Origin: an uncultured Bacilli bacterium
Lineage (GTDB): Bacteria; Bacillota_I; Bacilli_A; RF39; UBA660
Assembly: GCA_948497845.1 (NCBI GenBank)
Contig: CAOOMX010000003.1
Coordinates: 1 to 52,839, forward strand
Length of the DNA: 52,839 bases
Direction of reading: 5' to 3'
Below are positions 4,800 through 52,800 of this stretch, piece by piece. Within the stretch, counting starts at the first letter, position 1; every line of letters starts with the position of its first letter. The position numbers were made by a program, and so were the translations under genes. The notes under the pieces were generated by a model. It saw only the letters and a program-made list of their open reading frames with translations, had not been told where the DNA came from and made no database searches.

Positions 4800-4978
4800 T
4801 TGAAGTTTGAGGAGTAAAATATGATTCTTTTTTAGAGAAGTCGTGGTTGGTGAGAACGATGAAAGAAAATATTTGAAGGTTGCAAATGAAGAGTTTATGC
4901 AGAGATTGCGTTAAAATCTAATAAAGTTAAAGAAAGGATGGTACCGTCTTAATTGACTCCTTGGTAGCATTCTTTTTT
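4800..4978 (+). promoter_or_regulatory. T-box riboswitch leader of valS
   Basis: Elements present: AGUA (4813..4816), AG-bay AGAGA (4834..4838), distal loop UGGUGAGAA (4848..4856), F-box-like GCGUUA (4908..4913), and T-box core GGAUGGUACCGUC (4936..4948). The terminator helix AUGGUACC/GGUAGCAU plus a U-run ends at 4978. Confidence 0.7.
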
Positions 4979-5001
4979 ATTTTGTATAGGAGATGGTGGA
5001 T

Positions 5002-7422
5002 ATGTTAGATAAGAAGTATAATGCAAGTGAAAAGGAAAGTAAATGGTTAAATTATTGGCAAGATGAAAAGATATATGCTTTTAAGCCTGATCAAAGAGAA
5101 GTATTTTCAATAGATACTCCTCCTCCAACTGTTAATGGGAAGATTCATATAGGTCATATTTTTTCTTACTCCCAAACAGAGATGATTGCTAGATATAAAA
5201 GATTAAGAGGGTATAATATATTTTATCCTTTTGGGTTTGATGATAATGGATTGCCTAGTGAAAGATTAGTTGAAAAAGAACAAGGAACAAAAGCACATAT
5301 TATTGGAAGAGAGAAATTTTCTAAACTTTGTTATGAGACAACAGATAAATACGAAGCCGAGTTTCAAGAACTTTTTAGTAAATTAGGAGTAAGTACTGAT
5401 TGGGATATTCATTATAAAACAGTTAGTCCTTCTACTATTAAAATCAGTCAAGCATCTTTTTTGGATTTGGTTAGTAAAAATCATTGTTATCATAAAGAAA
5501 GTCCTGCTTTATGGTGTAATGAATGTTTGACTTCTATTGCCCAAGCGGAACTTGAAACGAAAACAATAGCTACTACTTTTAATTATGTAACGTTTAAAAC
5601 GGTTGAAGATAATGAAGAGTTTGTGATTGCTACAACTAGACCTGAACTTTTGCCTGCTATTGTTTGTGTCTTTGTAAATCCAGAAGATGAAGATAAAAAA
5701 CATTTAATTGGTAAAACTGCACATATACCAGTAGTGAATGTAGATGTGCCTATTTTAGCAGATGATAAGGTTGCTATTGATAAAGGTACTGGTGTCGTTA
5801 TGTGTTGTACTTTTGGAGATCAAACAGATATTGAATGGTGGAAAAAATATAATTTGCCATTAAAACATATTTTTACAAACGATGGAAGAATAAAAGAAGA
5901 TATACCTAATTATGGTGGATTAAAGATAAAAGAAGCTCGTAAAAAGATTGTGGAAGATTTACAAGATGGTGGCTTTATTGTAAAAATTGAGGAATTAGAA
6001 CATGAAGTGCAAACCCATGAAAGATGTGGAAAAGAAGTAGAGTACGCTGTATTAATGCAATGGTTTATTGATATTATGAATCATAAAAGCGATTTTTTAA
6101 AAATAGGAGAACAGATAAAGTGGTATCCTGGCCATATGAGAAATCGCTATAATGAATGGGTTGAAAATGTTTTATGGGATTGGTGTATATCTAGACAACG
6201 TTATTTTGGGGTTCCATTTCCTGTTTGGTATTGTAAAAATTGTGGGGAAGTTATTTTAGCTAAAAATGAAGATTTGCCAGTTAATCCATTAACTGATAAA
6301 CCTAAAGTGGATGCTTGTCCTAAGTGTGGGAAAAATGAATTTGTTGGAGAAAGCGATGTAATGGATACATGGGCAACTAGTTCAGTTACTCCTTTAATTA
6401 ATATGCATTATGGAGAAGAAGAAAATTTTGAAAATTTCTTAAAGCCAATGAGTCTTAGAACAAACGCTTCTGAAATTATTAGAACATGGGATTTTTATAC
6501 TATTGTTAAAAGCTTTTATCATTTTGGTATGAAGCCTTGGAAAAATGTCATGATTTCAGGCTTTGTTATGGCTGGTAAAGGCGAAAAAATTAGTAAAAGC
6601 AAAGGAAATAGTAAGGCTGATCCAATTGATTTAATTGAAGAGTATTCTGCTGATGTTATTCGTTATTGGGCTGGATCTGGTAGATTAGGTACGGATATTG
6701 TCTTTAGCGAAGAAACATTAATGCGTGGGCGCAAATTAGTTAATAAATTGTGGAATGTAGCTAAATTTATTGAAATGCATTTAAGTGATTTTGAAGATAA
6801 AGAAATAGAAAGTTATGAATATGTAGATCGCTATATTTTAGGGGCTTATAAAGAAATGGAAGTAAATTTCATTAAATATTTAGATGAATATGAAGTAGGT
6901 CTAGCTTTAAATACTTTAGAAAAGTTCTTTTGGAATTTCTGCGATGATTATATTGAAATTGTGAAACATCGTTTATATCGTCCAGAAGAATTTGGAGATG
7001 TAGCAAGATATTCTGGGCAAAAAACAGTTTATTTATTGCTTTATAAATTATTGCAAGCTTTTAGTATTTATTTTCCTTTTATTACTGAAGAGATATATCA
7101 AGAAATTTATCATCAAGAAAAATCAATTCATTTAACAAAGATAGAACCATTAGATGTAGATTATGAAAAAGAAGTGGCTTTGGGACATGATTTGATGGAT
7201 ATCATTAGTTTAGTAAGGGGAGAAAAAACAAAGAATAATGTTTCTTTGAAAACTCCTGTTAAATGTTTAAAAATAAAAGCAAATAAAGAGTTAAAAACAG
7301 CTATTTTGGAAAGTATAAAAGATTTTAAAGCAACACTTTTTATTGAAAATTTAGAAATTATAGATTGCGATAAAGGTATGGAAATAGAGGCAGTAGAACT
7401 GGATTTAGAAAGTGAAGAGTAA
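5002..7422 (+). CDS. valS: Valine--tRNA ligase (class Ia, archaeal/actinobacterial type)
   Basis: It has a HIGH-type motif PPPTVNGKIHIGH, a KMSKS-type motif KISKSKGN, and blocks FGFDDNGLPSE and WCNECLTSIAQAELE. ATG 5002 lies 9 nt after AGGAG (4988..4992); tracked ATG 4993 abuts the SD. A Val/Ile/Leu family call by eye cannot fully exclude a paralogue. Confidence 0.8.
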   Translation: MLDKKYNASEKESKWLNYWQDEKIYAFKPDQREVFSIDTPPPTVNGKIHIGHIFSYSQTEMIARYKRLRGYNIFYPFGFDDNGLPSERLVEKEQGTKAHIIGREKFSKLCYETTDKYEAEFQELFSKLGVSTDWDIHYKTVSPSTIKISQASFLDLVSKNHCYHKESPALWCNECLTSIAQAELETKTIATTFNYVTFKTVEDNEEFVIATTRPELLPAIVCVFVNPEDEDKKHLIGKTAHIPVVNVDVPILADDKVAIDKGTGVVMCCTFGDQTDIEWWKKYNLPLKHIFTNDGRIKEDIPNYGGLKIKEARKKIVEDLQDGGFIVKIEELEHEVQTHERCGKEVEYAVLMQWFIDIMNHKSDFLKIGEQIKWYPGHMRNRYNEWVENVLWDWCISRQRYFGVPFPVWYCKNCGEVILAKNEDLPVNPLTDKPKVDACPKCGKNEFVGESDVMDTWATSSVTPLINMHYGEEENFENFLKPMSLRTNASEIIRTWDFYTIVKSFYHFGMKPWKNVMISGFVMAGKGEKISKSKGNSKADPIDLIEEYSADVIRYWAGSGRLGTDIVFSEETLMRGRKLVNKLWNVAKFIEMHLSDFEDKEIESYEYVDRYILGAYKEMEVNFIKYLDEYEVGLALNTLEKFFWNFCDDYIEIVKHRLYRPEEFGDVARYSGQKTVYLLLYKLLQAFSIYFPFITEEIYQEIYHQEKSIHLTKIEPLDVDYEKEVALGHDLMDIISLVRGEKTKNNVSLKTPVKCLKIKANKELKTAILESIKDFKATLFIENLEIIDCDKGMEIEAVELDLESEE

Positions 7423-7438
7423 TAAGCTCTTCTTTTTG
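7414..7438 (+). terminator. Rho-independent terminator of valS
   Basis: GAAGAG (7414..7419) pairs with CTCTTC (7427..7432), followed by TTTTT. Confidence 0.6.
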
Positions 7439-7553
7439 CTTGAAAAAAATAAAGAGGTTTATCTTGACATATTTTTGCTGTTATGTTAGATTAAAGCCAT
7501 CAAATTGCAGAAAATTTGAAATTAGTAAAGAAAAACCTTATAAAATAAAAACT

Positions 7554-7590
7554 TTGTCAAATTGACAAGTGTTTTAAAATTTGTTATGAT
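7554..7590 (+). promoter_or_regulatory. Sigma-A-type promoter overlapped by a 15-bp perfect palindrome (candidate operator)
   Basis: -35 TTGACA (7562..7567), a 17-bp spacer, then TGT+TATGAT (-10 at 7585..7590). The palindrome TTGTCAAATTGACAA spans 7554..7568. Confidence 0.5.
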
Positions 7591-7614
7591 TATAGGGATT
7601 GAGAGGGATTAGTT

Positions 7615-10509
7615 ATGAACGAAAGACTGGGAATAGAAACAGCTATTAAATTATTTGAAAGTGCAAATAGAGAACAAATTGCTTCTTTAAAAACAGCTTA
7701 TAATAATTATGGTATTGGAAAACGTTATGAAAATGAATTATTAAATGATGCTAAAAAAGAATTGGATGATATTAATCAAGTGTTTTTGAATGCGGGATTA
7801 GATGCTCCATTTATTTTAAGTTATGCTCAGTTAAATACGAGTCTTGATAGAAAAAAGGAAAGTATTGCAGAATTAGAAAAACAAAGAGCTGAAGCAAGAG
7901 CAGCTTATATGGAATTAGATGAAGAAAAACTTATGGCTCAAAATCCATATATTACTTTAAATGAAATTAAAACGAGAAAGGCAACTGCAAGTAAAAAATG
8001 GGATGAGTTAAATTCTGCTATAGATGCTGCATGGAGAAAATACCGTTTATTAGAAGAGCAAAAGAAAAGAATAACTGATCCTGGTTTATTTGATGCTGAA
8101 TGTAATACGATTGAATATTTACGTTCATTAACTGATTCTAATGTAGATGAAGTATTAAAAACATATGTTCCTTATACTCAAATAGGTTTAGATGGGAAGC
8201 CTCTTGTTTCTAGTGAAAGATTAAATATTTTATTGCAATCAAAGTTATATGCTGTTGATTTATCCTTAGAAAGTGCTTTAGAAAAAAGAAAATTAATTGA
8301 ACAAAATATTGCTGTATTCGAAAGTGTTGGAAAAGAAATAGGTGTAGAGCTTATTTATGATGAAAAAGTAGCAGCTTTTAATGCTGCAAAAGTAGCACAG
8401 CAAATGTCAAGTAGTTATACTAGTTCACAAACTTTCACAATGGGCACAGGATTTGGAACTGGTACTGGATTCGGTACTAGTGGAACTGAGGCTAGTGGAA
8501 CTAGCACAGGTAACAATTTTGGCGGAGCTGGCACTAGTGGAACTGATGCAGGTAATAATTCTGGTGGAGCTGATGCTAATAGCGATGATTTTGATAAAGC
8601 TTGTGAAGATGCAAATGCATTAATTGCAGACGTTGAAAACATGATTCCAGAGTGGAATGTATGCGGTGTTGATCTTTTAGCTGGAGAAAAAGTGCGCTTA
8701 AATGACATTGTTGAAAATTTGAAAGTTGCTATGAATAATAAAAATTTAGAAGAAATAGAGCAACTAAATGAAGAATTGAGTAAAGATTTTGGTGAATTGT
8801 TAGAATTATTGAACACTAATGCTGGTGAAGTGCTTGCTAAAGCAGATAATATGCTTTCTAATTGGGATGATCTTTTTGCTGATGGTAGAGCTGATGCTAA
8901 ACTGGCTATAAATGCTATTTTAGGTGAAATAGAAGCTGCTATGAATTGGAGTGATTTCAAAGAAGTAGAAAGAGAAATTGGAACCCTAGATAATTATTTA
9001 AATCAATTATTAAATGTAACATTCATTAACGAAGCTAAAGAAAAAATAGCGAAAGCAGAAGGATTATTATCTGATTGGCTTAGATTTTTTAATACTGCAT
9101 GGACAAGTGATAAAGCTGTTTTGGATAATGATATTACAGAACTAGAAATTGCTATACATGATCAGGATTTAGAAAAAATAAAAAGATTATCTGGAGAACT
9201 AGATAGTCACTTAGATAGTATAGGAAAAGAAGTCGGAAAGAAAATATTCAATCAAATTGATTCAGCTTATGCAGATAATTTAGTAGATTTAAGTCCTTTG
9301 GAAAGGTCTATTATAAGACCAGCTGCAGAAGAATTGGAAAAAGCACTTTCAGCAGTACATGTAAATGTGGATGAAATAAATGAAAAGGCTGGAAAGTTAT
9401 ATGAAATAGCAGAACCTATTTTTAGTGCTATTGAAGCTATAGATAAGGCTGATGCTCTAATAAGTGAGAGCAATAAAGTAGTTTCTAGAAAAGAAAAGAA
9501 ATCACTTAAAGAGATGAAAAAAGAATTAATGTCTGCAAGACTTGAAGGAGATACAGATCGTATTAAAGCAGCCAGAGATGATTTAAATGAAGCAATAGAA
9601 GATGTTGAAACTAATGTTCAAAAGAAAAAGAATGATACATTAGATGAAAAACTTCCATTAGGTACAAGATATGAAGTTGTAAAACAAAAAACAGCAAAAA
9701 TTGCAAAGTCAACAGCATCTATCTTAAAAGCTGCTGCAATAGCGGGTGTAGCTATGACAGGATTAATTGGAGTAACTACAGGAGTTTGGTTATCTCCAGG
9801 AGTTCTTTCTCCGCTAGCAACTGTATTAACAGCCAGTGCTTTTTCTGGAGCTTTACAAATGTTGTATCAACATGTTATTATTCCTAAATTTGGACTCGAT
9901 GCTTTGCTGGAAGAATTGAGGATAAAGAAAGGCAAGAAGAAAAAATTACTTTATCCATTCTGGCTTACAAGTGGAGTTTCAATAATAAAAGAAAAAGCTT
10001 TTGGAGCTGTAAAAGACTTTGTGGCAGATAAGAGAGTTGAACATGCAGAAAAGAAAGAAGCTAAATTACAAGAGAAAAGAAGGGCTTTAAAAGAAGCAGC
10101 TGAAAAGGCTGAGGCAGAAAAAACTCTCGAAAATTCAGGCGAAACTTTAGCTTCTTCTGAAATTGTACCTGGAGAAAATATTTCTGTAGCAGACCCTTTT
10201 GTAGACGGCGAAGATCCATTTGCAGAAGATGAAGAAGAAACATTGGCAGCACCTGCTTCTGATACGACTTTAAAAGGAGAAGGAACTGGGGAGCCATTGT
10301 ATGATGAGGATTTCTTCAAGAATCTTGGATCAGAAGACCTGTTTGGGAAGATACAATTTTCGGATTTAGCACAAAAATTGGGAACTAGTCCACAGGACCT
10401 AGTAAGCAAATTAAATGGTATAGCTGATGAAGACTTAGATTTAGGTGACGCTTCAGGTTTAGTAGATGGTGACTTTGGTCCAGGTTTAGCAGAAGGAAGA
10501 GGGAGATAG
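7615..10509 (+). CDS. Large coiled-coil membrane protein, unknown function
   Basis: 964 aa with long charged helical regions and a G/T/S/N low-complexity linker (GTGFGTGTGFGTSGTEASGTSTGNNFGGAGTSG). Hydrophobic helices lie near the C-terminal third (AAIAGVAMTGLIGVTTGVWL, LATVLTASAFSGALQML), followed by an acidic tail. Confidence 0.6.
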   Translation: MNERLGIETAIKLFESANREQIASLKTAYNNYGIGKRYENELLNDAKKELDDINQVFLNAGLDAPFILSYAQLNTSLDRKKESIAELEKQRAEARAAYMELDEEKLMAQNPYITLNEIKTRKATASKKWDELNSAIDAAWRKYRLLEEQKKRITDPGLFDAECNTIEYLRSLTDSNVDEVLKTYVPYTQIGLDGKPLVSSERLNILLQSKLYAVDLSLESALEKRKLIEQNIAVFESVGKEIGVELIYDEKVAAFNAAKVAQQMSSSYTSSQTFTMGTGFGTGTGFGTSGTEASGTSTGNNFGGAGTSGTDAGNNSGGADANSDDFDKACEDANALIADVENMIPEWNVCGVDLLAGEKVRLNDIVENLKVAMNNKNLEEIEQLNEELSKDFGELLELLNTNAGEVLAKADNMLSNWDDLFADGRADAKLAINAILGEIEAAMNWSDFKEVEREIGTLDNYLNQLLNVTFINEAKEKIAKAEGLLSDWLRFFNTAWTSDKAVLDNDITELEIAIHDQDLEKIKRLSGELDSHLDSIGKEVGKKIFNQIDSAYADNLVDLSPLERSIIRPAAEELEKALSAVHVNVDEINEKAGKLYEIAEPIFSAIEAIDKADALISESNKVVSRKEKKSLKEMKKELMSARLEGDTDRIKAARDDLNEAIEDVETNVQKKKNDTLDEKLPLGTRYEVVKQKTAKIAKSTASILKAAAIAGVAMTGLIGVTTGVWLSPGVLSPLATVLTASAFSGALQMLYQHVIIPKFGLDALLEELRIKKGKKKKLLYPFWLTSGVSIIKEKAFGAVKDFVADKRVEHAEKKEAKLQEKRRALKEAAEKAEAEKTLENSGETLASSEIVPGENISVADPFVDGEDPFAEDEEETLAAPASDTTLKGEGTGEPLYDEDFFKNLGSEDLFGKIQFSDLAQKLGTSPQDLVSKLNGIADEDLDLGDASGLVDGDFGPGLAEGRGR

Positions 10510-18408: not shown

Positions 18409-18455
18409 TGGTGTCCCCTCAGAGATTCGAACTCTGGACCCACTGATTAAGAGTC
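18409..18455 (-). tRNA. 3' half of split host tRNA-Lys(CUU): anticodon loop to CCA
   Basis: The minus strand reads GACTCTTAATCAGTGGGTCCAGAGTTCGAATCTCTGAGGGGACACCA. T arm is CAGAG/TTCGAAT/CTCTG. The acceptor 3' strand AGGGGAC pairs with GTCTCCT at 52760..52766. Confidence 0.85.
18445..18455. repeat. attL core (direct repeat GATTAAGAGTC)
   Basis: Identical to 52727..52737. The flanking bases differ on both sides. Confidence 0.85.
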
Positions 18456-18594
18456 TTTTTTTATATACTTTAATAGTGTCTAAAAAGAACTAATTATTGT
18501 ATATAAATTCCCATAAAACATAGGGATACCACCAAATTTATACTTATTTAGAAATATATGTTACATAAATAAATATAATAGTATATTGACCTTT

Positions 18595-18643
18595 TTGCAC
18601 CGATTTGCACCGATAGGTCATCCACTGAACTTTTTGCACCGAT
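18595..18643 (+). repeat. Three direct TTGCACCGAT repeats (candidate integrase/Xis arm-type sites)
   Basis: Copies lie at 18595..18604, 18605..18614 and 18634..18643. Two more copies lie at the other element end (52622..52642) in the same orientation. Confidence 0.6.
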
Positions 18644-18679
18644 TAGGGTAAAAAAATTCAGAATCAGTTTTCAAATAAA

Positions 18680-19014
18680 TGGTGGGCTGTTAGGGATTCG
18701 AACCCTAGACCCACTGATTACAACAATGTTATCATATTAGCTTTTTATCTAATATTTCTACATATTACTAATTCTATGTAGTTCAGCATACATTATCAGC
18801 CAAATACTTGGTTGTCGAACACTCGTGGAAGTATTATATTTATTCAACTTCTATGCGTTACACTACTTAATAGCCTTTCGCAATCTATTAAGTTAGCACG
18901 GTATTGGCATTTCAGCGTTTACCGTTTTTGCTCGATTTTCATTGTTATATTACTATAACAAGCTCCCAGTGTTTTACCAAGAGTCAGTTGCTCTACCAAC
19001 TGAGCTAACAGCCC
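18680..19014 (-). tRNA. Element-borne tRNA-Lys(CUU) interrupted by a 259-nt intron in the anticodon
   Basis: Exon 1 is 19014..18980, GGGCTGTTAGCTCAGTTGGTAGAGCAACTGACTCT. Exon 2 is 18720..18680, TAATCAGTGGGTCTAGGGTTCGAATCCCTAACAGCCCACCA. Joined, they give a 76-nt cloverleaf with acceptor GGGCTGT/ACAGCCC, T stem TAGGG/CCCTA and encoded CCA. Confidence 0.75.
18721..18979 (-). ncRNA. Group I-like intron (hand-folded)
   Basis: P1 is CUCU|UGG/CUGGGAG with U.G at the 5' splice site. P2 is UUGUUAUA-GUAA-UAUAACAA. Further helices: P3 UCGAGC/GUUCGA, P4 ACGGUA/UACCGU, P6 ACUUAAUAG/CUAUUAAGU, P7 GCAUA/UAUGC, P7.1 GAAGU/ACUUC. Then P8 CAACCAA-GUAU-UUGGCUG, P9 CUACAUA/UAUGUAG and P9.1 AUAUUAG/CUAAUAU. The last intron nucleotide is G. 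No covariance-model search was run. Confidence 0.6.
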
Positions 19015-19035: not shown

Positions 19036-19044
19036 AGTATAGCA
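19036..19044 (-). promoter_or_regulatory. Extended -10 promoter (TGCTATACT) for the element tRNA
   Basis: The minus strand reads AGTATGCTATACT about 20 nt upstream of tRNA position 1. It closely resembles the ICE cassette promoters (AGTATGCTATAAT). Confidence 0.45.
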
Positions 19045-19096: not shown

Positions 19097-19136
19097 AAAA
19101 AAAATAAATGCTAGAACAATTTTCATTATTCTAGCA
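19097..19136 (-). terminator. Terminator after the integrase gene
   Basis: On the minus strand, TGCTAGAA-12 nt-TTCTAGCA followed by TTTATTTTTTTT. Confidence 0.6.
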
Positions 19137-20678
19137 TTTTATATATTCATTGTTTTGTATCACTTCTAACAAGAATTTATTTCCATATACAGCCCTTATT
19201 CTTTTCTCAAAATCATCCTTTGAATATTGTTTCTGCAAAGATACCATATTTTCTAATGATGGATAATTCGCCATTAAATAATTTTTTGTAGAGTTTATAT
19301 TTTCTGATAAATTGCTATAAGTTATTTCGGCTTTTGGATTTATAGACTTTAGTAAATATATTATTTTACTAATCTCAACATATTCATTACCTGTAACTAT
19401 AGATGCTATATACATAATTGGGGCATAAAGAGTATTATCTTCGTTAATATCTATTCGATTATTAAAAACATTATCAAATACTGTAGTTGCTTTTTTCAGC
19501 TTTTCTTCTGACTTGTGAACGTATTTATAGGTAGTTTGAATATTTGCGTGTCCTGCAAGAGCTTGTACTTCTGATGGTGTTAAATCATCATTATAATTCA
19601 TTTGATAAGTTATATATGTATGTCTTAATCCATGAAAGGTAGCATCAATATCATGTTTCTTTGCGAATTTAGACCATAATTTACCAACGTATCTAGGGCG
19701 AAAATAATCGCTATCTTTATTTAAAAACAAATTGGGAAGATTCTTATAGTCTATACCAAATTGGGCTTTGTAAAGATTTACTAAAACCGTTCGATATTTT
19801 AAATACTGTTTTAGACTAATCATAAGTATTTCAGGTAATGGTATCCCACGTTCGCTATATTCGGATTTTAACTCATATTCTTCATATTGTCTTGTTTTGT
19901 AGTTTTGTTTTACAGCCTTTTTTAAAAATACTTTATTATGCGTAAAGTCGATGTCCGATTCGGGATCATCTTCGCTTTGACAATGAAGTCCACAAACTTC
20001 CTCTTCACGAAGTCCTGCACATAAGCCAAAGTAAAAGATTGTTTTATCTCTGCTTGATGCATATTTTTCTATTAAATCGTTTACATTTTCAAATTCTTCG
20101 TAAGGAATAAACCCAACTTCATTTTCAATAGTAATTTTTGGTTCTTCGACACCGTCCATAGGGTTTTCTGTAATGATTTTCCATTTTTTTTGTGCTTTAT
20201 TAAATAAGATTCGCAACATTACAAATTCATGATGTAAAGTATTTGAAGATATTTTTTCTCCAGTTTTTTTATTAGGATGGTTTGGATCAATTTTATCTCT
20301 TTTACTTTCTAAAGATAAAAATAATTCAATATCTGCTGTAGTTATTTGATATAAGAGTTGTTTGCCAAAATATTTTTTTAAAGTTTTAATTCGTCCTGCG
20401 TAATCTGTGAGAGTATTGGGGCTTGGTTTTTTAGGTTTATTTTGATACCACTCAAAATATATATCACAAAACTTCTCAAAAGTTATATTTTTATCTACAT
20501 AAATATCAATTCCTAATTTCTGTTTTGCTAAAAACTTATCCCTTTCGTCAATAGCTTGTTCTAATGTGTCATATCTTTCGTCAAAATTTCCTTTGATTTT
20601 CTTGCTTTTTCTTATTTGAACTCGAAACTTTCCCTCATCTGTAATATGGATATATCTTTCGGATTTTACTTTTTTCAT
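19131..20678 (-). CDS. int: Tyrosine-type integrase with a ~127-aa C-terminal extension
   Basis: Catalytic blocks are GLREEEVCGL (Arg I region), HGLRHTYITYQ and LAGHANIQTTYKYVH. It lies next to the att site. Confidence 0.85.
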   Translation of the reverse strand: MKKVKSERYIHITDEGKFRVQIRKSKKIKGNFDERYDTLEQAIDERDKFLAKQKLGIDIYVDKNITFEKFCDIYFEWYQNKPKKPSPNTLTDYAGRIKTLKKYFGKQLLYQITTADIELFLSLESKRDKIDPNHPNKKTGEKISSNTLHHEFVMLRILFNKAQKKWKIITENPMDGVEEPKITIENEVGFIPYEEFENVNDLIEKYASSRDKTIFYFGLCAGLREEEVCGLHCQSEDDPESDIDFTHNKVFLKKAVKQNYKTRQYEEYELKSEYSERGIPLPEILMISLKQYLKYRTVLVNLYKAQFGIDYKNLPNLFLNKDSDYFRPRYVGKLWSKFAKKHDIDATFHGLRHTYITYQMNYNDDLTPSEVQALAGHANIQTTYKYVHKSEEKLKKATTVFDNVFNNRIDINEDNTLYAPIMYIASIVTGNEYVEISKIIYLLKSINPKAEITYSNLSENINSTKNYLMANYPSLENMVSLQKQYSKDDFEKRIRAVYGNKFLLEVIQNNEYIKC

Positions 20679-20689
20679 AAATTATTTAA

Positions 20690-20962
20690 TTAAGAATTCC
20701 TGTTTTTTATCCAAGTTTCTATTTCAGATTTTACAAAATATCTTTCACGACCACTTTTAAAATAAGGCAAATTCTCGTTTTTAATAGCTTGGTCTAATTT
20801 ATATTTAGAAAAAAGTTTCGGGTATATAGTTTGTAATTGCTTGGCTGTATAGACAACAGAATCAGGGCTTTTATTAGTATTTATACCCATGCAATTAGCG
20901 ATAAAATCATAAGCTGTTATTCCTTTAAGAGTTTCAATAACTTGGTTATTTTCTTGATTCAT
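20690..20962 (-). CDS. xis: Excisionase-like helix-turn-helix DNA-binding protein
   Basis: 90 aa. The C-terminal block YTAKQLQTIYP...NLPYFKSGRERYFVKSEIETWI fits the excisionase-family HTH pattern. It lies immediately upstream of int. Confidence 0.55.
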   Translation of the reverse strand: MNQENNQVIETLKGITAYDFIANCMGINTNKSPDSVVYTAKQLQTIYPKLFSKYKLDQAIKNENLPYFKSGRERYFVKSEIETWIKNRNS

Positions 20963-20975
20963 AATTCCTCCTTTT

Positions 20976-23174
20976 CTATAATTGGTTTGTTATATTTTTG
21001 GCATCAAAAAAAGTAATAACAGTAGTATTACTTTCATTGATAGTTTGGATTTCTATGTTAATCATTGGCATTATTTGTTCAATGATTTTATTTTCTTCGT
21101 ACATACTAATTTTTCTATTTATAATTATTTGATTATCTACAGAATTTATATTAAATAGTTGTTCAACATTTTTTATTACAGTTTTTAATGTACTATTATC
21201 ATTTTCTATAATTGGCTCTAGCATATTATCGGATACATCGTTATTTGAAGTATTTAGATTTTCATAAGCATTTTTCATTTGTTCTACAGTATAGTAATTT
21301 TCTGTATTCTTTTTTAACATTTTGGGAGTACGTTCTATTGGAACAAACTCATAATCATTAAAAACGTCATTGTATAAATATGTATCTCGAAAGATAGCAT
21401 TTGACACAGTTGGGAATATAATTGTTTTATATTTTAAAGCAATAATTTCATTTGCTGTTAATAGTTCCCTACCGAGAAGAGAAGTAGTCTTATTAGCACC
21501 AATTTTGAAATGATCGGTACTTTGACTTATAGATTGGGTTTCTATAGTAGCCTTTCCGAGCTTACGTGAAATTATTTCGGCACAATCTACAGAGTTTGTT
21601 TTTAGGTAACACAAAGCCGAGTTATCTTGAATAATAGAAGAGGTTTCTTTTCCATAAACCTGATCGAGTTGAGCGAAACTTTGGATAAAGAACTGAAATC
21701 TCATACCTCTTGACCTAGCTACAGAAACTATCGTTTCAATATCTGCTAAAGGTGGGCAATTTGCGAACTCATCAAGTATCCACTCAATTTTACGGGGCAA
21801 GGTTCCATTATTTTGGGGCAAATTAGCGAGTTTTGTTAATTCCTTATAAAGAATACCTACAATAATAGTAATAAGCCCATAATAGCTTTTATCCTCGTCA
21901 GGAACGATAATATAAAGTATGCTTGGTTTTTCTACTAGAGAAGATATTTCAAAATCACTTGTACTAGTGATATTTTCAACGTTTAAATCATCAAAGATTT
22001 GCATTTTTTCTCCAAAGACAGCCGTAACACTTTTGTATGTATTTTCATTTGCCGATAAAATAGAAGTAAGGTAGTCTTTTGATAAAGTACCATATTCACG
22101 AGTATTAAGATTTCTTTGTAAATAAAGTTGATTTTCTTTCAATAAAGAAGAGTTTTGAAATTTTTTAATACTTGAAACATTGATTTTACTTTCAGGAATC
22201 AAGCCATTTTGATAGTCCTCTAAAAAAATACCAGTAATTCCTTTGAATAAGTTTTTAGAAGAATTAAGCCAAAATGGGTCTTTTGTTTCTTTTTCAGCAA
22301 ATATTAAATCAGCTACAGTATTCGTAAGTCGTATAGCTTCGGCTTGAGAAGATGAACTATGATTCTGATAATCTTTAATATAATTAAGCAAGTCTATGAT
22401 GCTAACAGTTTTATAGTCAAAATCTACTAGTTCATTTATAACACGGAAAAAATCTTCACTTTCTAATTTTTCATTGATAACATCAATTTTATTAAGAAAA
22501 TACTCGATAACATAATTATCAATATTGTTTTGTGTTTTAATATCATTTCGATAATTAGTATCAATTATAAATTTTTCATAATCAATATTTAATTTATGGA
22601 ATAGTAAACACATAGAAGAAAATAACTTTTCATCATATAGACAATGAACTTTCCACTCGTCAATAATAGGTTTCATAATATTTATATGTGTAGATAATGT
22701 TGGATTACGAAAATCTATAGTAATGATATTTTCATATCCATTGTCTTTGAATATTTTGGACGTCTTGCTAAAAATTTCTCCTTTGGGATCGGTAATTATT
22801 AAGGTCGGTTTTGATTTAGTTTGAGAAAAGAAAATTGTTTCATTAAGTACAAGAGTAGTCGATTTACCACTTCCTGTAGAACCTATAATAATCCAATGAG
22901 GACTAACATTGTCAAAATATATATTAGTAAATTTTCCTTTATCTTGTTCATAGTAAATAGGAAATCCTGCTTTCTCGATATGGTTAATATTTTCTTTTAA
23001 AAACGTTTTACTTATTTCTTTTAGAGTAGCGAACTTACTTGATCCATGCTCATTATGATTTTTTATTTTTGATTTACTTAATCTAGGCTCAATAAATAAA
23101 ATGAACAAGATTGTCGCAATAATTAAAACGAGAAGAAGAATTGAAAAAAAGGATAAGTTACTGTCTAATCTGAT
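20976..23174 (-). CDS. Type IV coupling protein (VirD4/TraG family)
   Basis: Walker A IIIGSTGSGKSTT and Walker B EWILDEFANCP. The tracked start is TTG 23108, but the frame is open to 23189 and encodes a TM helix (LSFFSILLLVLIIATILFILFI) that spans that TTG. ATC 23174 lies 9 nt after AAAGGA and is a possible true start, so the start is uncertain. Confidence 0.8.
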   Translation of the reverse strand: MRLDSNLSFFSILLLVLIIATILFILFIEPRLSKSKIKNHNEHGSSKFATLKEISKTFLKENINHIEKAGFPIYYEQDKGKFTNIYFDNVSPHWIIIGSTGSGKSTTLVLNETIFFSQTKSKPTLIITDPKGEIFSKTSKIFKDNGYENIITIDFRNPTLSTHINIMKPIIDEWKVHCLYDEKLFSSMCLLFHKLNIDYEKFIIDTNYRNDIKTQNNIDNYVIEYFLNKIDVINEKLESEDFFRVINELVDFDYKTVSIIDLLNYIKDYQNHSSSSQAEAIRLTNTVADLIFAEKETKDPFWLNSSKNLFKGITGIFLEDYQNGLIPESKINVSSIKKFQNSSLLKENQLYLQRNLNTREYGTLSKDYLTSILSANENTYKSVTAVFGEKMQIFDDLNVENITSTSDFEISSLVEKPSILYIIVPDEDKSYYGLITIIVGILYKELTKLANLPQNNGTLPRKIEWILDEFANCPPLADIETIVSVARSRGMRFQFFIQSFAQLDQVYGKETSSIIQDNSALCYLKTNSVDCAEIISRKLGKATIETQSISQSTDHFKIGANKTTSLLGRELLTANEIIALKYKTIIFPTVSNAIFRDTYLYNDVFNDYEFVPIERTPKMLKKNTENYYTVEQMKNAYENLNTSNNDVSDNMLEPIIENDNSTLKTVIKNVEQLFNINSVDNQIIINRKISMYEENKIIEQIMPMINIEIQTINESNTTVITFFDAKNITNQL

Positions 23175-24425: not shown

Positions 24426-24920
24426 CTATAAATAAAATTCGTAATTTTCCATTTTTGGAATATAATCTTTAAAATTATTATTTTTTCTTTCTTGTGATAA
24501 TTCAAAAGCAAGTTCTTCTACAGCCTTTATATTATCAGAGTATGCACAAAACATACCTGCTTCCGAATCATAATAAAACTCCCTACTCAAATGGGGGAGT
24601 TTGCCATCTATAAAAGTTCTAAATAAACTCTCATAATCGTAACCTGTCCCAAGAATATTGTCATTATGGCGACTTTTAAAAATATCTTTATCAAAGTATT
24701 CCTGATTCAATGTTAGAGAATACTTATTATCAATTTTCATTATATAAAAAGGTGTAAGATATTCTCTAAACCATTTATCAAATTTATTGTATTCTTTTTC
24801 TTTATAATATAAATCGGAAAGAAGAAGATTAGGATTCAGCTGTAGGTATAATTCCATACCTTTATTGATTCCATCTCCTAAATCTTTCCTTATTTTTTCA
24901 TATTCTTGTAATATACTCAC
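24426..24920 (-). CDS. Hypothetical protein
   Basis: Tracked 164-aa ORF. No motif recognised. Confidence 0.45.
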   Translation of the reverse strand: MSILQEYEKIRKDLGDGINKGMELYLQLNPNLLLSDLYYKEKEYNKFDKWFREYLTPFYIMKIDNKYSLTLNQEYFDKDIFKSRHNDNILGTGYDYESLFRTFIDGKLPHLSREFYYDSEAGMFCAYSDNIKAVEELAFELSQERKNNNFKDYIPKMENYEFYL

Positions 24921-24986: not shown

Positions 24987-25526
24987 TTATTTTTCAGTAC
25001 AAGAAGCGTTTCTATTTTTATGTAAATCTAAAAAATACGTTTTATATTCACTTACTGAAAATTTATTATTTGAATCTATATATTTTTTAACACCTGATCC
25101 TAAAACTGATTCCTTATCGATTTTATTTATTTCATAATTGTAAGTTATAACATAAGTTTTATTGCCTTTTTCTTCAATAGTTGCTTTAACTCCGTCATAC
25201 TCATTAGCTCTAGTTACATATCCATCTTCTTGTTCTTTTCTTCTTTTGTATTGTTCTTCTGTAGAGTATTCTTCTTCACGAATAGTCTTAATACTTATAA
25301 GAATCATATCTTTAGTATAAGTAAATTCCTCTGTACTTTTTGTATTAGATTCATATTCATTTTCTGCTTCACTTTCGTATGTACAAGTCATTACTGTATT
25401 TTTAGTTTCAGAAACATTATTATCATTGTTCGAATTATTTTGATTTTCTTTCTTTTCATTACCACAGCCTGTAGTTAAGCCTATGATCATAACACAACAT
25501 ATTACACCAAATAAAATTTTTTTCAT
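24987..25526 (-). CDS. Lipoprotein, unknown function
   Basis: Signal peptide plus lipobox MKKILFGVICCVMIIGLTTGC. ATG 25526 is preferred over tracked GTG 25538. Confidence 0.65.
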   Translation of the reverse strand: MKKILFGVICCVMIIGLTTGCGNEKKENQNNSNNDNNVSETKNTVMTCTYESEAENEYESNTKSTEEFTYTKDMILISIKTIREEEYSTEEQYKRRKEQEDGYVTRANEYDGVKATIEEKGNKTYVITYNYEINKIDKESVLGSGVKKYIDSNNKFSVSEYKTYFLDLHKNRNASCTEK

Positions 25527-25572
25527 AATTCCACTCACTTTCGTAAACTATTATAACATATTTTACGTAAAT
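25527..25572 (-). promoter_or_regulatory. Conserved promoter/operator/5'UTR block, copy 1 of 3
   Basis: The minus strand reads TTTACGTAAA-ATATGTTATAATAG-TTTACGAAAGTGAGTGG: an extended -10 TGTTATAAT flanked by TTTACG half-sites. Near-identical blocks lie at 40595..40641 and 41278..41322. Confidence 0.6.
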
Positions 25573-25606
25573 TAAAAATATACGTTTTTAAAATTTATAC
25601 AAAATA

Positions 25607-32571: not shown

Positions 32572-33588
32572 TTAATCTTGATAAAGTGTGTTTTCACTAA
32601 AATTGATAAAATAAAAAGCATCCAAACGGATACCTGATTCTGTATTTAACCCTAAATGTAAATGATTTCCTGTACTTTGACCTGTAGTACCAACTTTCGC
32701 TATTAACTGACCTTTATTAACCGTATTTCCTACAATCATTTTAGAAGTATAACTATTAGGAAATAAGTGAGCATAAGTAACAATATCATTTGTACCATCA
32801 CACTTAATTTTTATAATATTACCTGTTTTATTTTTCGGCTCGGATTGTTGATTAAATGGTATATTCTCATTTTGAGTGAAAGTAACTGAATCAATGACAC
32901 CATCACAAATAGAATAGACATTTGTTTCAGCACTTGCACCTAAATCCCAACCACTATGGAAATTTACATTTGCTTGTTCAGAACTTGATAATCCTAAATC
33001 AACATTTCTTTTCTCATTTACCATAGAGGTAATACCTGAAACTGTTTCTTTTTTTAAAGGGGAAACATACGGAAGATTATAGTATGAATTGGTATATATT
33101 AAATTATGTTCTGTAACATAGCTTTCGCTACATAAGTCAACCATACTAGAATTATACTCTAAATTATATGATGGCTTTCCTAGACTGCTGTAAGTAGGAA
33201 ATTTTTTTATATATTGACACATCTCACTTGTAGGGATCATTTGCTTTTCTTCAAAGTTAATATTTTTGATATAGGCATCTTCCCATTTTTCAAATGGTAA
33301 ATCATTGGGATTAGTAATATTGTTAGTTTCCTGTAAATACCATACTATACGTTCCATACTGACATATCCATAGTCAAAAAGATACTTATTTAATAAACTT
33401 CTATAGGTATCGGCATACAAGTCATTATTTTCTAAATAGCTTTGTTTTCGTAATCCCTCATAATTTTTAGCATCTATCTCACTTCCTACAGAGAAACCTA
33501 AAACTGCTAAAACAGATATAACAAGAAAAAAGAAAGCAAAAAGGAAAAAGAAGATAGCAACTAATTTAATTATTAGAAACTTTTTCAT
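32572..33588 (-). CDS. M23/LytM-family peptidoglycan hydrolase, membrane anchored
   Basis: N-terminal TM helix. M23 motifs HSGWDLGA and GTTGQSTGNHLHLGL. Confidence 0.75.
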   Translation of the reverse strand: MKKFLIIKLVAIFFFLFAFFFLVISVLAVLGFSVGSEIDAKNYEGLRKQSYLENNDLYADTYRSLLNKYLFDYGYVSMERIVWYLQETNNITNPNDLPFEKWEDAYIKNINFEEKQMIPTSEMCQYIKKFPTYSSLGKPSYNLEYNSSMVDLCSESYVTEHNLIYTNSYYNLPYVSPLKKETVSGITSMVNEKRNVDLGLSSSEQANVNFHSGWDLGASAETNVYSICDGVIDSVTFTQNENIPFNQQSEPKNKTGNIIKIKCDGTNDIVTYAHLFPNSYTSKMIVGNTVNKGQLIAKVGTTGQSTGNHLHLGLNTESGIRLDAFYFINFSENTLYQD

Positions 33589-35953
33589 TGCTAGAAATTT
33601 CTTCTAATTCCTGATTTTCTTCTTCATCGCCCATATAGTACCTCTCAAGAGGGGTAGCAAATATACTTACACGAAGTCTTTTCTTATTGGTAATATTCAT
33701 CAAGAAGTCGCCTAATTGGGCTTTATTTAAAAATGCTTTCTGTGTTTCTGTTAATGGATTACTTTTATAAATTTGTTCTACAGCTTGTAAGTCATTATCT
33801 TTAAGCATACCACATAATTGATACTGACAATTATTGAATATAGCTGTAGCATTTTTCAATTTTGTATTAGAAGAGATTAAATCTTGTGGGCTTTGGGTAG
33901 AAACAGTTAAGTTTGAGTGATATTTACGTAACTTTCTACTCATTTGATCCAAATATTTTATAGTTGCTGGATTATCGTCATTGATAAAATGATGGAACTC
34001 ATCAACTACAATCATAACAGGTTGAGGTTTGCTATCTAGGTTAATATCATTTTTACCAATAATTTCATTATTTAAAAATGTTAAAAGATTTAATATTTGA
34101 GCATTAGCAATTCTTTTGTTATCACTAAATACTAAACTCTTAAAGTTAAAGCACATAAGCTGACTATCCAAAGAAATAGCTGTATGCCCATTAAAAATGG
34201 TATCTTGACCGATAATAAAACGTTTTAAAAGAATTTTAAGACTAGAAATAATATTCAATTCTTCCTTACTTTTTATTGATTTTCTATATTCGTCAAGAAA
34301 GATATATAAATCAGAGAAGATAGGAAAATCTTGATTACTATAAGTTTTTAATTCTTCTATGGTAGTATCTTTTGTAATACCACGTGTTTTATATAGTTTT
34401 TCGGTAATATCAAGTAAGACAACTTTTTCTTTTTCTTTTATTTCCTCAAATACACAAGAATAAAAGGATTCCAAAAAACCAAGATGACGATTTAAAATAG
34501 AAGTTTCTTCCTCGTCATCATCAGGCAAGAAACGTACTTGCAACGGGTTAATTAAAACCTTATTTGCAAGATTGATATACTCACTATCTTTATAACGAGA
34601 TGCAAGTTTTTTAAATTCATTTTCAACATCCCAAATAAATACCTTTGTACCACGTAGCAATTCATTAAGAATCAAACGTTTTAAAAGGAACGATTTTCCC
34701 GATCCTGTAGTACCAACTACTGCAACGTTAAAGGAAGTACGTTTTTCTTTATCTTTATAAAAAATATCCCAAAGGATTGGTAAACCATAATGAGAATCTT
34801 CTCCAATTAAAAAACCATTTGGGTCAATATGATTACACATGGTAAAAGGAAAACCACTTGCCAACGTCATAGTAGGAAGATACATTGCATAATCAGGCAT
34901 ACCAAACGGGGTAATATCATAAGACTGCCATGCCTCCAGTTGACGGAGTTTTGGAATATCAACTTTTATGGATTTAGGACTAGCATTTGTACGAATAAGT
35001 TTAAATGCTTCCTCACGTTCCTTTTTTGTACCTGTTATTGCTAAAATAATGGTAACTTCTTTTATTTTCTCATCATTATTGGATAACTGCTCTATCAGTA
35101 GGCGATAATTCTCTAAAGTGTGCTTTAAAGTATTTATGTCTGCCACGTTTTTAGACGAGTTATAATCAGCAAGTAAAGATTTATAACTAGAATTTAAGAT
35201 ATTGATTAGTTTTTCTTTATCCATTGTTTCTTTTATAGTAAATGAAACATTTACATTTGGAAGATTAACTATAGTATCTAAAAAATTCTTCTCTATAAAA
35301 GGGGGATAGCTTTTTATAGCTACTAATTGAATATTTTTATCGTCCACTTTTAAAAGAGATGCTTGTTCTTGCAAATTAGTGGGAGAAAGTAAATCTACTA
35401 AATCATAATACATTAAATGATCTAACGTTGTATCAGAAAAATATATCTTTGATAAAATCGTGTATAATTCCATTTTATTTGTAATTTGATTTACGTAGAG
35501 TTTTGGATTAGTGGAAAGACAAAGGCTCTCGAACTCATCGATTGCCTTTTTCAATTCCTCTTTTGAATTACAAAGAATAGAAAAGAAGTAACTACTAGCA
35601 TAAGTAACTTTTTCCGATTCGATATATTCGATAAAATCAAGATTACTAGATAATACTTCTTTTTGAATATCGTTTGTAGCTTCATTGATTAAATTTTGAT
35701 AATACATTTTATTAGCATTTAAGTTGATTTGTTCGTCATACTTATATGCTTTAATTACAACTTTTAATTTGTACAGTTGTGATAAAGTATAAAAAAACAA
35801 TTCTTGTTCTTCTTTGTTTGTTAAAGATAAGTCTATCGGATTCACACGAAAAAATCTTGCAAAACTGCCATCTTTTAAAATAATAATTCCGTCCTTATCT
35901 ATTGTTTCAACGTTCATAAAAACCGATGAATTAGCAATTTTATTTCTTAACAT
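33566..35953 (-). CDS. VirB4-family conjugation ATPase
   Basis: 795 aa with Walker A VVGTTGSGKSFLLK and Walker B VMIVVDEFHHF. The N-terminus (IILKDGSFARFFRVNPIDL) is typical of Gram-positive VirB4 homologues. Confidence 0.85.
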   Translation of the reverse strand: MLRNKIANSSVFMNVETIDKDGIIILKDGSFARFFRVNPIDLSLTNKEEQELFFYTLSQLYKLKVVIKAYKYDEQINLNANKMYYQNLINEATNDIQKEVLSSNLDFIEYIESEKVTYASSYFFSILCNSKEELKKAIDEFESLCLSTNPKLYVNQITNKMELYTILSKIYFSDTTLDHLMYYDLVDLLSPTNLQEQASLLKVDDKNIQLVAIKSYPPFIEKNFLDTIVNLPNVNVSFTIKETMDKEKLINILNSSYKSLLADYNSSKNVADINTLKHTLENYRLLIEQLSNNDEKIKEVTIILAITGTKKEREEAFKLIRTNASPKSIKVDIPKLRQLEAWQSYDITPFGMPDYAMYLPTMTLASGFPFTMCNHIDPNGFLIGEDSHYGLPILWDIFYKDKEKRTSFNVAVVGTTGSGKSFLLKRLILNELLRGTKVFIWDVENEFKKLASRYKDSEYINLANKVLINPLQVRFLPDDDEEETSILNRHLGFLESFYSCVFEEIKEKEKVVLLDITEKLYKTRGITKDTTIEELKTYSNQDFPIFSDLYIFLDEYRKSIKSKEELNIISSLKILLKRFIIGQDTIFNGHTAISLDSQLMCFNFKSLVFSDNKRIANAQILNLLTFLNNEIIGKNDINLDSKPQPVMIVVDEFHHFINDDNPATIKYLDQMSRKLRKYHSNLTVSTQSPQDLISSNTKLKNATAIFNNCQYQLCGMLKDNDLQAVEQIYKSNPLTETQKAFLNKAQLGDFLMNITNKKRLRVSIFATPLERYYMGDEEENQELEEISSNEKVSNN

Positions 35954-36020
35954 TTTTGCTTTTATATATTGCTTTGGCTTTTTAGAATATTGTTTCTTAA
36001 TTACTTTATTTTCTTTATTT

Positions 36021-36350
36021 TTAATTTTTTCTTCTTTTGAAAGTTTTTGTAAACGTCTTATATTGATCCCTCCTTACTTCGTTACTAGTTAAATGATAAT
36101 AATATGTTTTTTTACGAAATAAAAAACTTCCAACCAATAAAATCAATTTGTACATCCTATTTTGCTTTGAAAAGGAAACAGGAACAAGTAAAAATATTCC
36201 TGTACCAATTATAATTAAGCTAGTTTGATAAAAACCAATAGTAAATAGGATGATAAAAGCAAGTGCAAAAACACTCGCTAGAATAATATCTTTAATTTCC
36301 AAATTAAATAAACCTAAATTTCGTTTTGTTGTTTGTAAGGTAATATACAA
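36021..36350 (-). CDS. PrgI/VirB3-like small membrane protein
   Basis: TTG start 7 nt after AGGAGG. It has two TM helices and lies directly upstream of virB4. Confidence 0.45.
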   Translation of the reverse strand: MYITLQTTKRNLGLFNLEIKDIILASVFALAFIILFTIGFYQTSLIIIGTGIFLLVPVSFSKQNRMYKLILLVGSFLFRKKTYYYHLTSNEVRRDQYKTFTKTFKRRKN

Positions 36351-36362
36351 AAAACAGTCCTC

Positions 36363-40594: not shown

Positions 40595-40641
40595 ATTCTC
40601 ACTCACTTTCGTAAACTATTATAGCATACTTTACGTAAATA
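40595..40641 (-). promoter_or_regulatory. Conserved promoter/operator/5'UTR block, copy 2 of 3
   Basis: The minus strand reads TTTACGTAAA-GTATGCTATAATAG-TTTACGAAAGTGAGTGAG. Confidence 0.6.
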
Positions 40642-40666
40642 AGAAATATGTTTCTAAATTTATGCA

Positions 40667-41277: not shown

Positions 41278-41322
41278 ATACGTACACTCACTTTCGTAAA
41301 ATATTATAACATACTTTACACT
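41278..41322 (-). promoter_or_regulatory. Conserved promoter/operator/5'UTR block, copy 3 of 3
   Basis: The minus strand reads TTAGTGTAAA-GTATGTTATAATAT-TTTACGAAAGTGAGTGTACG. The upstream palindrome is degenerate in this copy. Confidence 0.5.
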
Positions 41323-52557: not shown

Positions 52558-52621
52558 TTCGTCTAAATATATATAAATAAGGAAAGATAAATCTATTAAA
52601 GTCTAAATAAATATAAAAAAA

Positions 52622-52642
52622 TTGCACCGATTTTGCACCGAA
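52622..52642 (+). repeat. Two direct TTGCACCGA(T/A) repeats (arm-type sites, right end)
   Basis: Copies at 52622..52631 and 52633..52642, in the same orientation as the three copies at 18595..18643. Confidence 0.6.
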
Positions 52643-52672: not shown

Positions 52673-52726
52673 TAAACCCTTATAAATAAAGGAATTTTAT
52701 ATAGAAACTCTTTGAGTAGAGCAACG

Positions 52727-52737
52727 GATTAAGAGTC
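52727..52737. repeat. attR core (direct repeat GATTAAGAGTC)
   Basis: Identical to 18445..18455. Confidence 0.85.
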
Positions 52738-52766
52738 AGTTGCTCTACCAACTGAGCTAAGGAGAC
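52727..52766 (-). tRNA. 5' half of split host tRNA-Lys(CUU): position 1 to the anticodon loop
   Basis: The minus strand reads GTCTCCT-TA-GCTC-AGTTGGTA-GAGC-A-ACTGA-CTCTTAA-TC and then continues into non-tRNA element DNA. Confidence 0.85.
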
Positions 52767-52800
52767 ATAATAAATACTTAATACTTTTCTATTATATCAT

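Follow-up and report, generated by a model that had tools for sequence, protein, structure and literature searches.

On a contig from an uncultured Bacilli bacterium (CAOOMX010000003.1 of assembly GCA_948497845.1, analysed over its full 52,839 nucleotides, ‘the window’ below) a chromosomal tRNA-Lys(CUU) gene is divided by foreign DNA that carries a tRNA-Lys(CUU) gene of its own, and this second gene is in turn interrupted in its anticodon loop by a 259-nt insert with the features of a group I intron. The foreign DNA has a body of 34,271 bp (18456-52726, an interval given without strand) lying between two copies of a short core. On its gene content and flanking repeats it is an integrative conjugative element (ICE) with a tyrosine integrase, as the initial annotation had proposed and as Pfam and NCBIfam matches bear out, with both a VirB4-like conjugation ATPase and a VirD4-like coupling protein present. 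The integrase (515 amino acids; 19131..20678, coordinates written with two dots being on the minus strand here and below) has Pfam Phage_integrase and SAM-like domains, and its R224, K271, H349, R352, H377 and Y386 are invariant among 36 homologues. The coupling protein (20976..23108) matches Pfam T4SS-DNA_transf and the NCBIfam CD1115 family, and the ATPase (33566..35953) matches the NCBIfam Mbov_0397 family at 463 bits. The reading developed here, which as a whole seems to us modestly probable, is that the ICE brings a replacement for the tRNA whose gene it breaks, that an intron shields the replacement from the ICE's own integrase, and that the intron-bearing gene is part of a module shared with chromosomes.

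The split host gene and its element-borne counterpart

The core, GACTCTTAATC, is 11 bp long, corresponds to tRNA positions 30-40 and occurs exactly twice in the window, at 18445-18455 and 52727-52737, both times on the minus strand. It is within these 11 bp that the chromosomal gene is split. The host 5′ part (positions 1-40; 52727..52766) ends in the core copy of the right attachment site, attR, and the displaced 3′ part (positions 30-76 with CCA; 18409..18455) includes that of the left one, attL (18445..18455, recognized as an exact 11-bp repeat). When 52766..52727 is joined to 18444..18409 (positions 41-76) ARAGORN calls a 76-nt tRNA-Lys(ctt). On reading the minus strand from high to low coordinates one meets the host 5′ part, the foreign DNA, the second GACTCTTAATC, the rest of the host 3′ part and a terminator. 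At attR the sequence runs on into CGTTGCTCTAC, and AAAAAAA stands directly before attL. Identity between the element's attachment site (attP) and the chromosomal one (attB) is limited in the window to positions 30-40, and because just these 11 bp are in common neither junction has a working tRNA: ARAGORN calls none at either and reading of the sequence agrees. Restoration of the class I type, with the element supplying the 3′ part of the tRNA, does not occur here, as the identity stops at position 40. The initial annotation was right in all its statements on the sequence itself (the repeats, the split tRNA and the 259-bp insert, confirmed by reading and with ARAGORN) and in regarding the host gene as split and left unrestored.

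Around the anticodon loop at attR (window 52700-52775) there is a perfect 10-bp inverted repeat, GTAGAGCAAC ... GTTGCTCTAC, with one side in host DNA and the other in ICE DNA. Next to the attR core the ICE DNA repeats, in inverted form, the tRNA sequence to the left of the loop, which points to a site centred on the anticodon loop. There are also five GGTGCAAA-type repeats in the window, where about one is expected and none of 100 shuffles reaches five, and four of the five flank both cores. Three are near attL (18594..18640) and, by count against shuffles and by conservation, are likely to be P-arm integrase sites of the arm type; the two near attR, GGTGCAA(A/T) (52621..52639), are on repeat count likely to be their P′ arm equivalents. 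The repeat is kept as (G/C/T)GTGCAAA on related ICEs (loci L003 and L022) and in clade B of the integrase family considered below. As a whole the arrangement resembles an attP of lambda type, arm sites included. Almost certainly the ICE was inserted by its own tyrosine integrase into the anticodon loop of the chromosomal tRNA-Lys(CUU) gene, with disruption of that gene.

Within one species three states of the site can be seen, on contigs whose neighbouring SH3 protein is identical. The ICE junction is present in L061; an uninterrupted, intron-less tRNA junction (...CCCACTGATTAAGAGTCAGTTGCTC) is present in L063, L067, L068 and L070, so that the empty attB exists in nature; and L062 and L069 have a different element at the exact 11-bp core, with other arm-like repeats and a helix-turn-helix (HTH) gene. 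The insertion is therefore polymorphic within the species and the anticodon loop is a hot spot, used there by at least two different elements. The second element (L062 3527-5153 and L069 667-2219, corresponding to window 18445-18455) is unrelated to the ICE, is joined to the host tRNA 3′ half as ...GATTAAGAGTC|TGGGTACACCAC..., and carries an HTH_3 gene as well as TTGCATAC repeats. The locus has a third variant (L064, L065, L066), which diverges right after the SH3 terminator (…TTTTTTTATCTTCTAGGAAAATGC; window ~18355), in contigs that stop 36-40 nt past the divergence, before the state of the tRNA can be read. A survey of attB in more distant species by way of homologues of the SH3 protein (P0057, P0059, P0072) met with no synteny. 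Addiction-like stabilization of the ICE, an idea of the initial annotation, finds no support: attB is rebuilt when excision is precise, and conspecifics frequently have the site empty.

The tRNA-Lys(CUU) gene of the ICE (19014..18680) starts about 116 bp past the integrase gene, int, from which it is parted by a terminator-like hairpin that ends int (19106..19139; hairpin scan). ARAGORN, with a 30-nt repeat in the case of the first, delimits a 35-nt 5′ exon ending CUCU (18980..19014) and a 41-nt 3′ exon with CCA (18680..18720). With the insert removed the first 35 and last 41 nt form a 76-nt tRNA-Lys(ctt), an isotype shared with the host gene that is disrupted. The 30-nt repeat is an exact match to the host 5′ half (18979-19008 = 52731-52760), and after the insert the ICE gene resumes with TAATCAGTGGGTC. 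ICE and host tRNAs are identical at positions 8-36 (the repeat having one upstream-flank base besides) and 36-48: the D arm and anticodon arm are the host's, the acceptor and T stems differ, and the predicted spliced tRNA has ICE-specific arms, GGGCTGT...ACTGACTCTTAATCAGTGGGTCTAGGG. On direct reading an extended −10 element, TGCTATACT (19036..19044), is the likely promoter. A simple −35/−10 scan did not call it; it is kept in L003, L022, clade B and the chromosomal locus L052. The L003 acceptor stem is GGACTGT/ACAGTCC versus GGGCTGT/ACAGCCC in the window, a compensatory change which argues that the ICE tRNA is under selection.

Could this tRNA be carried for another purpose, such as resistance in recipients to anticodon nucleases or other tRNA-targeting defences, or the supply of a reader for AAG? 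Mobile elements are reported often to carry tRNAs for such reasons (PMC10264068, PMC11555353), and the matter has been raised for tRNA-Lys (PMC10865867). For the present ICE it is improbable: its tRNA is the same isoacceptor as the one whose gene is destroyed, it would not evade a nuclease since the anticodon loop is unchanged, and AAG usage among Lys codons is lower on the ICE than in the host flank (15% versus 25%). A more mundane alternative is that the metagenome contig is a chimera with its joint in the 30-nt repeat, and short-read contigs do often break there. However, the order int, intron-bearing tRNA, arm sites, core and host 3′ half is met in separate assemblies and in the diverged L001, L003 and L022, and the host halves make up a fitting pair that agrees with the empty site; an artefact of assembly is exceedingly improbable.

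The insert in the anticodon loop

The insert (18721..18979; 259 nt, no open reading frame, terminal G at 18721), characterized by Rfam alignment, a helix table and covariation, breaks the gene between U35 and U36, with the exons, by group I rules, at ...CUCU | U...UUG | UAAUC. The break at CTCT^TAA in the initial annotation accords with these splice-site rules. P1 is CUCUU/GGGAG, in which U35 pairs with G to give a U-G wobble at the 5′ splice site; a phage homologue has CCAU/GUGG, also with a U-G pair, and there the reading frame is restored on intron removal. The terminal G is kept in 12 of 12 homologues while the bases just before it vary. In addition to P1 the helices are P2 (8 bp, GUAA loop), P3 (UCGAGC/GUUCGA), P4, P5, a long P6, P7 (GCAUA/UAUGC, crossing P3), an extra hairpin between P7 and P3′, P8, P9 and P9.1. 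The Rfam model Intron_gpI (RF00028) gives a full-length alignment (13.7 bits, E = 0.36 in a 301-nt search), whose consensus topology, including the P3/P7 pseudoknot, agrees with the helices derived by hand.

The z-score of the intron's minimum free energy is −5.6. Compensatory changes are seen in 28 of its 62 pairs with five sequences compared; with 12 aligned, 98.7% of 460 pair cells are standard-paired and 20 of 42 pairs have double changes, against 30-48% paired and 0-3 double-change pairs in controls where the partners were slid by 1-3 columns. P7 alone comes in three covarying forms, GCAUA/UAUGC, GAGUA/UACUC and GCGUA/UACGC. Homologues are present in at least 14 phage contigs and three other tRNA genes, and in the same gene on the L003 and L022 ICEs the intron is 88-91% identical. 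From topology, helices and covariation we have little doubt that the insert is a real group I intron, as initially annotated, and it is likely that it splices and gives a working tRNA.

Standard tools do not bring it to light. A search with Rfam E-values over 851 nt failed to detect the intron, and with default ARAGORN and Rfam at gathering score both gene and intron are missed. This is a matter of the limits of the tools rather than of absence of the intron; the Rfam group I model contains no bacterial seeds (Williams 2020 preprint). As default ARAGORN and Rfam miss the gene, carriers would be annotated as being without tRNA-Lys(CUU). When introns were allowed ARAGORN offered a Thr(tgt) register, which was rejected as having no U before the 5′ splice site and no G at the intron end.

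Might the gene be dead, its intron non-splicing or its tRNA unused, with tRNA-Lys(UUU) reading AAG? The poor Rfam score of the intron is in keeping with this, as is the ability of sister clades of the ICE to manage without a tRNA at the position after int. Against it, copies that are ~10% different in the intron retain their ribozyme helices and acceptor stem through compensatory substitutions, and the promoter is conserved; we consider a dead gene very improbable.

Some of the wider intron family merits mention in its own right. A related group I intron in a probable tape-measure gene (L035 6680-7897, = L041) has an open reading frame for a GIY-YIG/NUMOD homing endonuclease (6789-7739) in its P5 loop, and BLAST identified related introns in 13 further IMG/VR contigs (L091, L097, L101, L106, L107, L112, L120, L125, L127, L128, L131, L134 and L135). 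The loop of the extra hairpin, UGAAUAAAUAUAAU, is near-invariant across the family. Early matches to an intron pattern that were without BLAST similarity (4 of 5 viral, 11 of 14 metagenome) were dismissed as chance.

The crossover core, the relatives and the chromosomal allele

The core site of a tyrosine recombinase consists of two inverted binding sites around an overlap of 6-8 bp (PMC10865867). In L010, one of the relatives that target tRNA-Phe, the element-side sequence differs up to position 31 and identity begins at C32, so the left limit of the required identity is the first base of the loop. Strand exchange across the overlap needs matching sequence. With identity confined to 30-40, or to 32-40 when L010 is taken into account, every overlap of 6-8 bp inside 32-40 includes the 35|36 junction, and the intron is therefore within the overlap, where the initial annotation had presumed it to be. 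The same annotation had seen that the ICE gene minus its intron, GTAGAGCAACTGA-CTCTTAA-TCAGTGGGTC, is a perfect attB. A hypothetical intron-less copy would lie in the same orientation as the attP core and with the arm sites between, at 225 bp (the measured distance from the 3′ end of the ICE tRNA to the attL core; the earlier figure was ~250 bp). It is highly probable from this arrangement that the intron-bearing gene is no substrate for the integrase.

The mechanism that we propose has an RNA and a DNA side. The ICE tRNA precursor would self-splice and supply the isoacceptor lost by the insertion, which is the logic of the tRNA-dependent lysogeny of phages. In DNA the intron would move the inverted integrase-binding half-sites, the arms of the anticodon stem, 259 bp apart and cut the overlap, and the ICE could thus carry a functional copy of its target beside attP without recombination at that copy, recombination that would delete the arm sites or open a docking site for more copies. 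Since the anticodon loop is fixed by tRNA function, an intron is among the few ways to destroy the site in DNA yet keep the RNA. The intron-bearing gene would not have been built on the ICE, the module of promoter, exons and intron being found also in chromosomes of related gut Bacilli. That shielding is the selective reason for the ICE retaining the intron-bearing version seems to us slightly less likely than not.

Comparison of the integrase family took in 49 relatives and their loci. In clade A (integrase identity about 66-100%) the tRNA follows int, and there are two further complete copies, both with the intron; the same arrangement is on ICEs whose integrases are 63% (L003) and 68% (L022) identical. 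Its recurrence in independent assemblies and diverged ICEs (L001, L003, L022) argues that it is not due to chance. Co-occurrence of the intron on related ICEs, raised in the initial annotation, is what is seen: all three complete ICE copies have it, and no intron-less copy at the same place was found among the relatives (complete cases L003 and L022). The short-read contigs of three more clade A variants end within the 5′ exon, and those of P0007 break at ...GACTCTT(A), the point of divergence of host and ICE if the intron follows. Short-read contigs with a gene for this integrase (L002, L020, L021, L024, L025, L054-L057) end 15-37 nt into the ICE tRNA; with contigs ending at sequence shared with host tRNA genes, the ICE tRNA is systematically lost from short-read assemblies. 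A search of IMG/VR with the integrase gave nothing beyond 21-31% identity.

Clade B (integrase 57-65%) keeps a homologous promoter, and its junction, (G/A)ACTTGTAATC joined to the 3′ half of tRNA-Thr(UGU), precedes host tRNA-Tyr, Gln and Lys(UUU) genes. In clade C (36-40%) the junction is ACTGAAAATCC with the 3′ half of tRNA-Phe(GAA). To judge from such junctions the integrase family is one for which the anticodon loop serves as the overlap and the stem beside it as the arms. Among the clades, with the near junctions of B and C read, a tRNA brought along is seen only in clade A. L005 (integrase 42%) has an intact tRNA-Phe (5656-5731) that adjoins int in the opposite orientation, an arrangement which probably restores tRNA-Phe.

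Several of these loci have peculiarities of their own. On clade B ICEs (L027-L030, L004, L026, L059, L060) a short hairpin replaces the tRNA behind the outward promoter, which faces the downstream host genes for tRNA-Tyr, Gln and Lys(UUU) and may maintain their expression. The splits of tRNA-Phe(GAA) in L008-L014 are ~240-400 bp after int. A separate 3′ half of tRNA-Leu(UAA) is joined to foreign DNA at L015 ~9189, and L029 has at ~4955-5027 an extra 73-bp piece, an apparent chimera of a tRNA-Tyr 5′ part and a tRNA-Thr 3′ end that may be a scar of recombination.

The intron is not confined to ICEs. Two metagenome contigs (L051, L052) have a tRNA-Lys(CUU) gene with the same intron and promoter in a plainly chromosomal setting, with RNase III, SMC, FtsW and ZnuA among the neighbours and no integrase homologue within the ~11.8 kb read. 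Comparison with the L022 ICE copy gives 93.7% identity over the 364 nt of promoter, exon core and intron, and 96.9% for the intron by itself; the flanking ZnuA genes of the two loci are 64.6% identical, and the acceptor stem is of host type (GTCTCCT/AGGGGAC). A near-identical module between diverged flanks indicates recent movement between ICE and chromosome, in one direction or the other.

Was the intron, then, merely a passenger? The ICE may have captured or exchanged a chromosomal tRNA-Lys(CUU) gene that already had it, with no protective role selected, and the coincidence with the core would stem from two independent habits, as the group I introns of tRNA genes and the crossovers of this integrase family are invariably in the anticodon loop. 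The chromosomal gene with the same promoter and intron between ZnuA flanks so much more diverged fits this well, as do the choice of other anticodon loops by clades B and C and the catalogue of bacterial tRNA group I introns, all of which are in the anticodon loop, the Lys.4Ug type included. The notion in the initial annotation that the intron was placed for the sake of the ICE does not survive these two observations, introns of this kind being always in that loop and the same gene being chromosomal in L051 and L052. Yet the intron destroys the core whatever its origin, a copy lacking it would constitute a perfect attB at 225 bp from attP, and this physical consequence stands even if it was never selected. 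Moreover, all three complete ICE copies have the intron, in an anticodon arm otherwise identical to attB. We rate a pure passenger as rather unlikely.

A bolder reading makes of the intron an anti-integration device twice over. It would shield the ICE copy, and in the chromosomal allele it would close the tRNA-Lys(CUU) hot spot, the L051/L052 type of chromosome having no intact core at this gene, with the ICE spreading an endonuclease-free intron into host tRNA genes by recombination through identical exons. This is speculative, and on the sequences to hand we doubt it; if true it would give the idea of Randau and Soll that is taken up below its first natural case in bacteria.

Returning to the replacement tRNA shielded by its intron, certain considerations weigh against it. 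The Rfam score of 13.7 bits is short of the 50-bit gathering threshold. AAG, at 25% of the Lys codons of the host flank, may be read by tRNA-Lys(UUU) as well. The sister clades B and C, at the near-side junctions read, have no tRNA at the position after int. The intron-bearing gene is chromosomal as well in L051 and L052, and because of this the position of the intron needs no ICE-related explanation. Finally, group I introns without an endonuclease persist for want of a route of loss, and retention alone is no proof of selection.

The remainder of the window can be dealt with briefly. A 90-amino-acid open reading frame at the position expected of an excisionase gene (20690..20962) has no Pfam match; it is a candidate for that role, homologues at the same position in relatives having a weak HTH_17 match. 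Other ICE genes encode an M23 peptidase, ArdC, a primase, SSB, a methylase, and a sortase with an adhesin. No relaxase family of Pfam or NCBIfam was matched among the open reading frames scanned in the window; relatives have a weak MobL/Relaxase match adjoining the coupling protein. The conjugation genes at 33566-38003 match families named after Mycoplasma ICEs (Mbov_0397 for VirB4, Mbov_0396 and MMCAP2_0566 for membrane proteins), in company with an integrase of tyrosine type. A gene for an Imm51 immunity protein (24426-24920) and, nearby in relatives, a weak LPD28 match hint at polymorphic-toxin cargo. A module of 60-130 nt is repeated in three ICE genes (25455-25581, 40520-40649 and 41274-41334) with 74-89% identity over the shared 61 nt; it takes in the region upstream and the beginning of the coding sequence, which resembles a signal peptide. 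In the first open reading frame of the window a 273-bp period occurs three times (44-649), presumably as repeated domains of a surface protein.

Relation to known systems

In tRNA-dependent lysogeny, known from mycobacteriophages including Fionnbharth, integration in a tRNA gene at a core of ~10 bp does not restore the gene, and an element-encoded tRNA compensates (Guerrero-Bustamante and Hatfull 2024, PMC10865867); a similar arrangement has been suggested for prophage Lj965 of Lactobacillus johnsonii (PMC10865867). The present case is alike in its tyrosine integrase, in the short core in a tRNA gene (in the phage case also tRNA-Lys), in the lack of a working tRNA at the junctions and in the promoter-driven tRNA of the same isotype on the element. 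The knock-out and replacement logic of the initial annotation is therefore not new. Unlike those systems the carrier here is a conjugative element and not a phage, and the anticodon arm of its tRNA equals attB with the core split by a group I intron; the mycobacteriophage tRNAs lack introns, and self-targeting is not brought up there (PMC10865867). To judge by titles and abstracts, the literature searched has no apparent ICE or intron case under the term tRNA-dependent lysogeny. The ICE would extend a strategy of ‘break the tRNA, bring your own’ from phages to the conjugative elements of uncultured gut Bacilli.

Anticodon-loop (class I) tRNA integration sites of tyrosine integrases are reportedly the subject of work by Williams in 2002. 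The likeness to them is that the crossover falls in the anticodon loop and that the stem of this loop provides symmetric arms for binding; the difference is that the identity block ends at position 40 and not at the tRNA 3′ end, and that the gene is not rebuilt. Mycobacteriophage integration sites in anticodon loops are mentioned in PMC10865867.

Bacterial tRNA group I introns, always in the anticodon loop, have been catalogued in 21 settings, including Lys.3Ug and Lys.4Ug, and are of the IC3 kind (Williams 2020 preprint). The ICE intron shares with them the anticodon loop, the U at −1 in a P1 wobble, the terminal G, the absence of an open reading frame and a size of ~250 nt, and it is inserted after the fourth base of the loop, as in Lys.4Ug. 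Unlike these IC3-like introns it belongs to another sequence family, with its nearest relatives in protein genes of phages, some with GIY-YIG endonucleases; it has the extra hairpin between P7 and P3′, and it is carried on an ICE. Introns of subgroup IA have P7.1/P7.2 between P7 and P3′.

The hypothesis of Randau and Soll, as cited in PMC4390854, is that archaeal tRNA genes gain protection against integrating elements from introns and from being split. Here as there an interruption removes the integrase target in DNA and processing of the RNA restores the tRNA. Theirs, however, are protein-spliced archaeal introns in host genes, and ours is of group I type and bacterial, and is present both in one chromosome lineage and on the very element that integrates. 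Each component of the present system is known; the combination is new. Through the intron the needs of the RNA, for which the anticodon loop must be intact, are set apart from those of the integrase, for which the core must be, and with one species that offers empty, ICE-occupied and other-element states of the site, and a related lineage with the intron-bearing allele, nature has provided a system in which the old notion of introns as a guard of tRNA genes against integrating elements can be put to the test.

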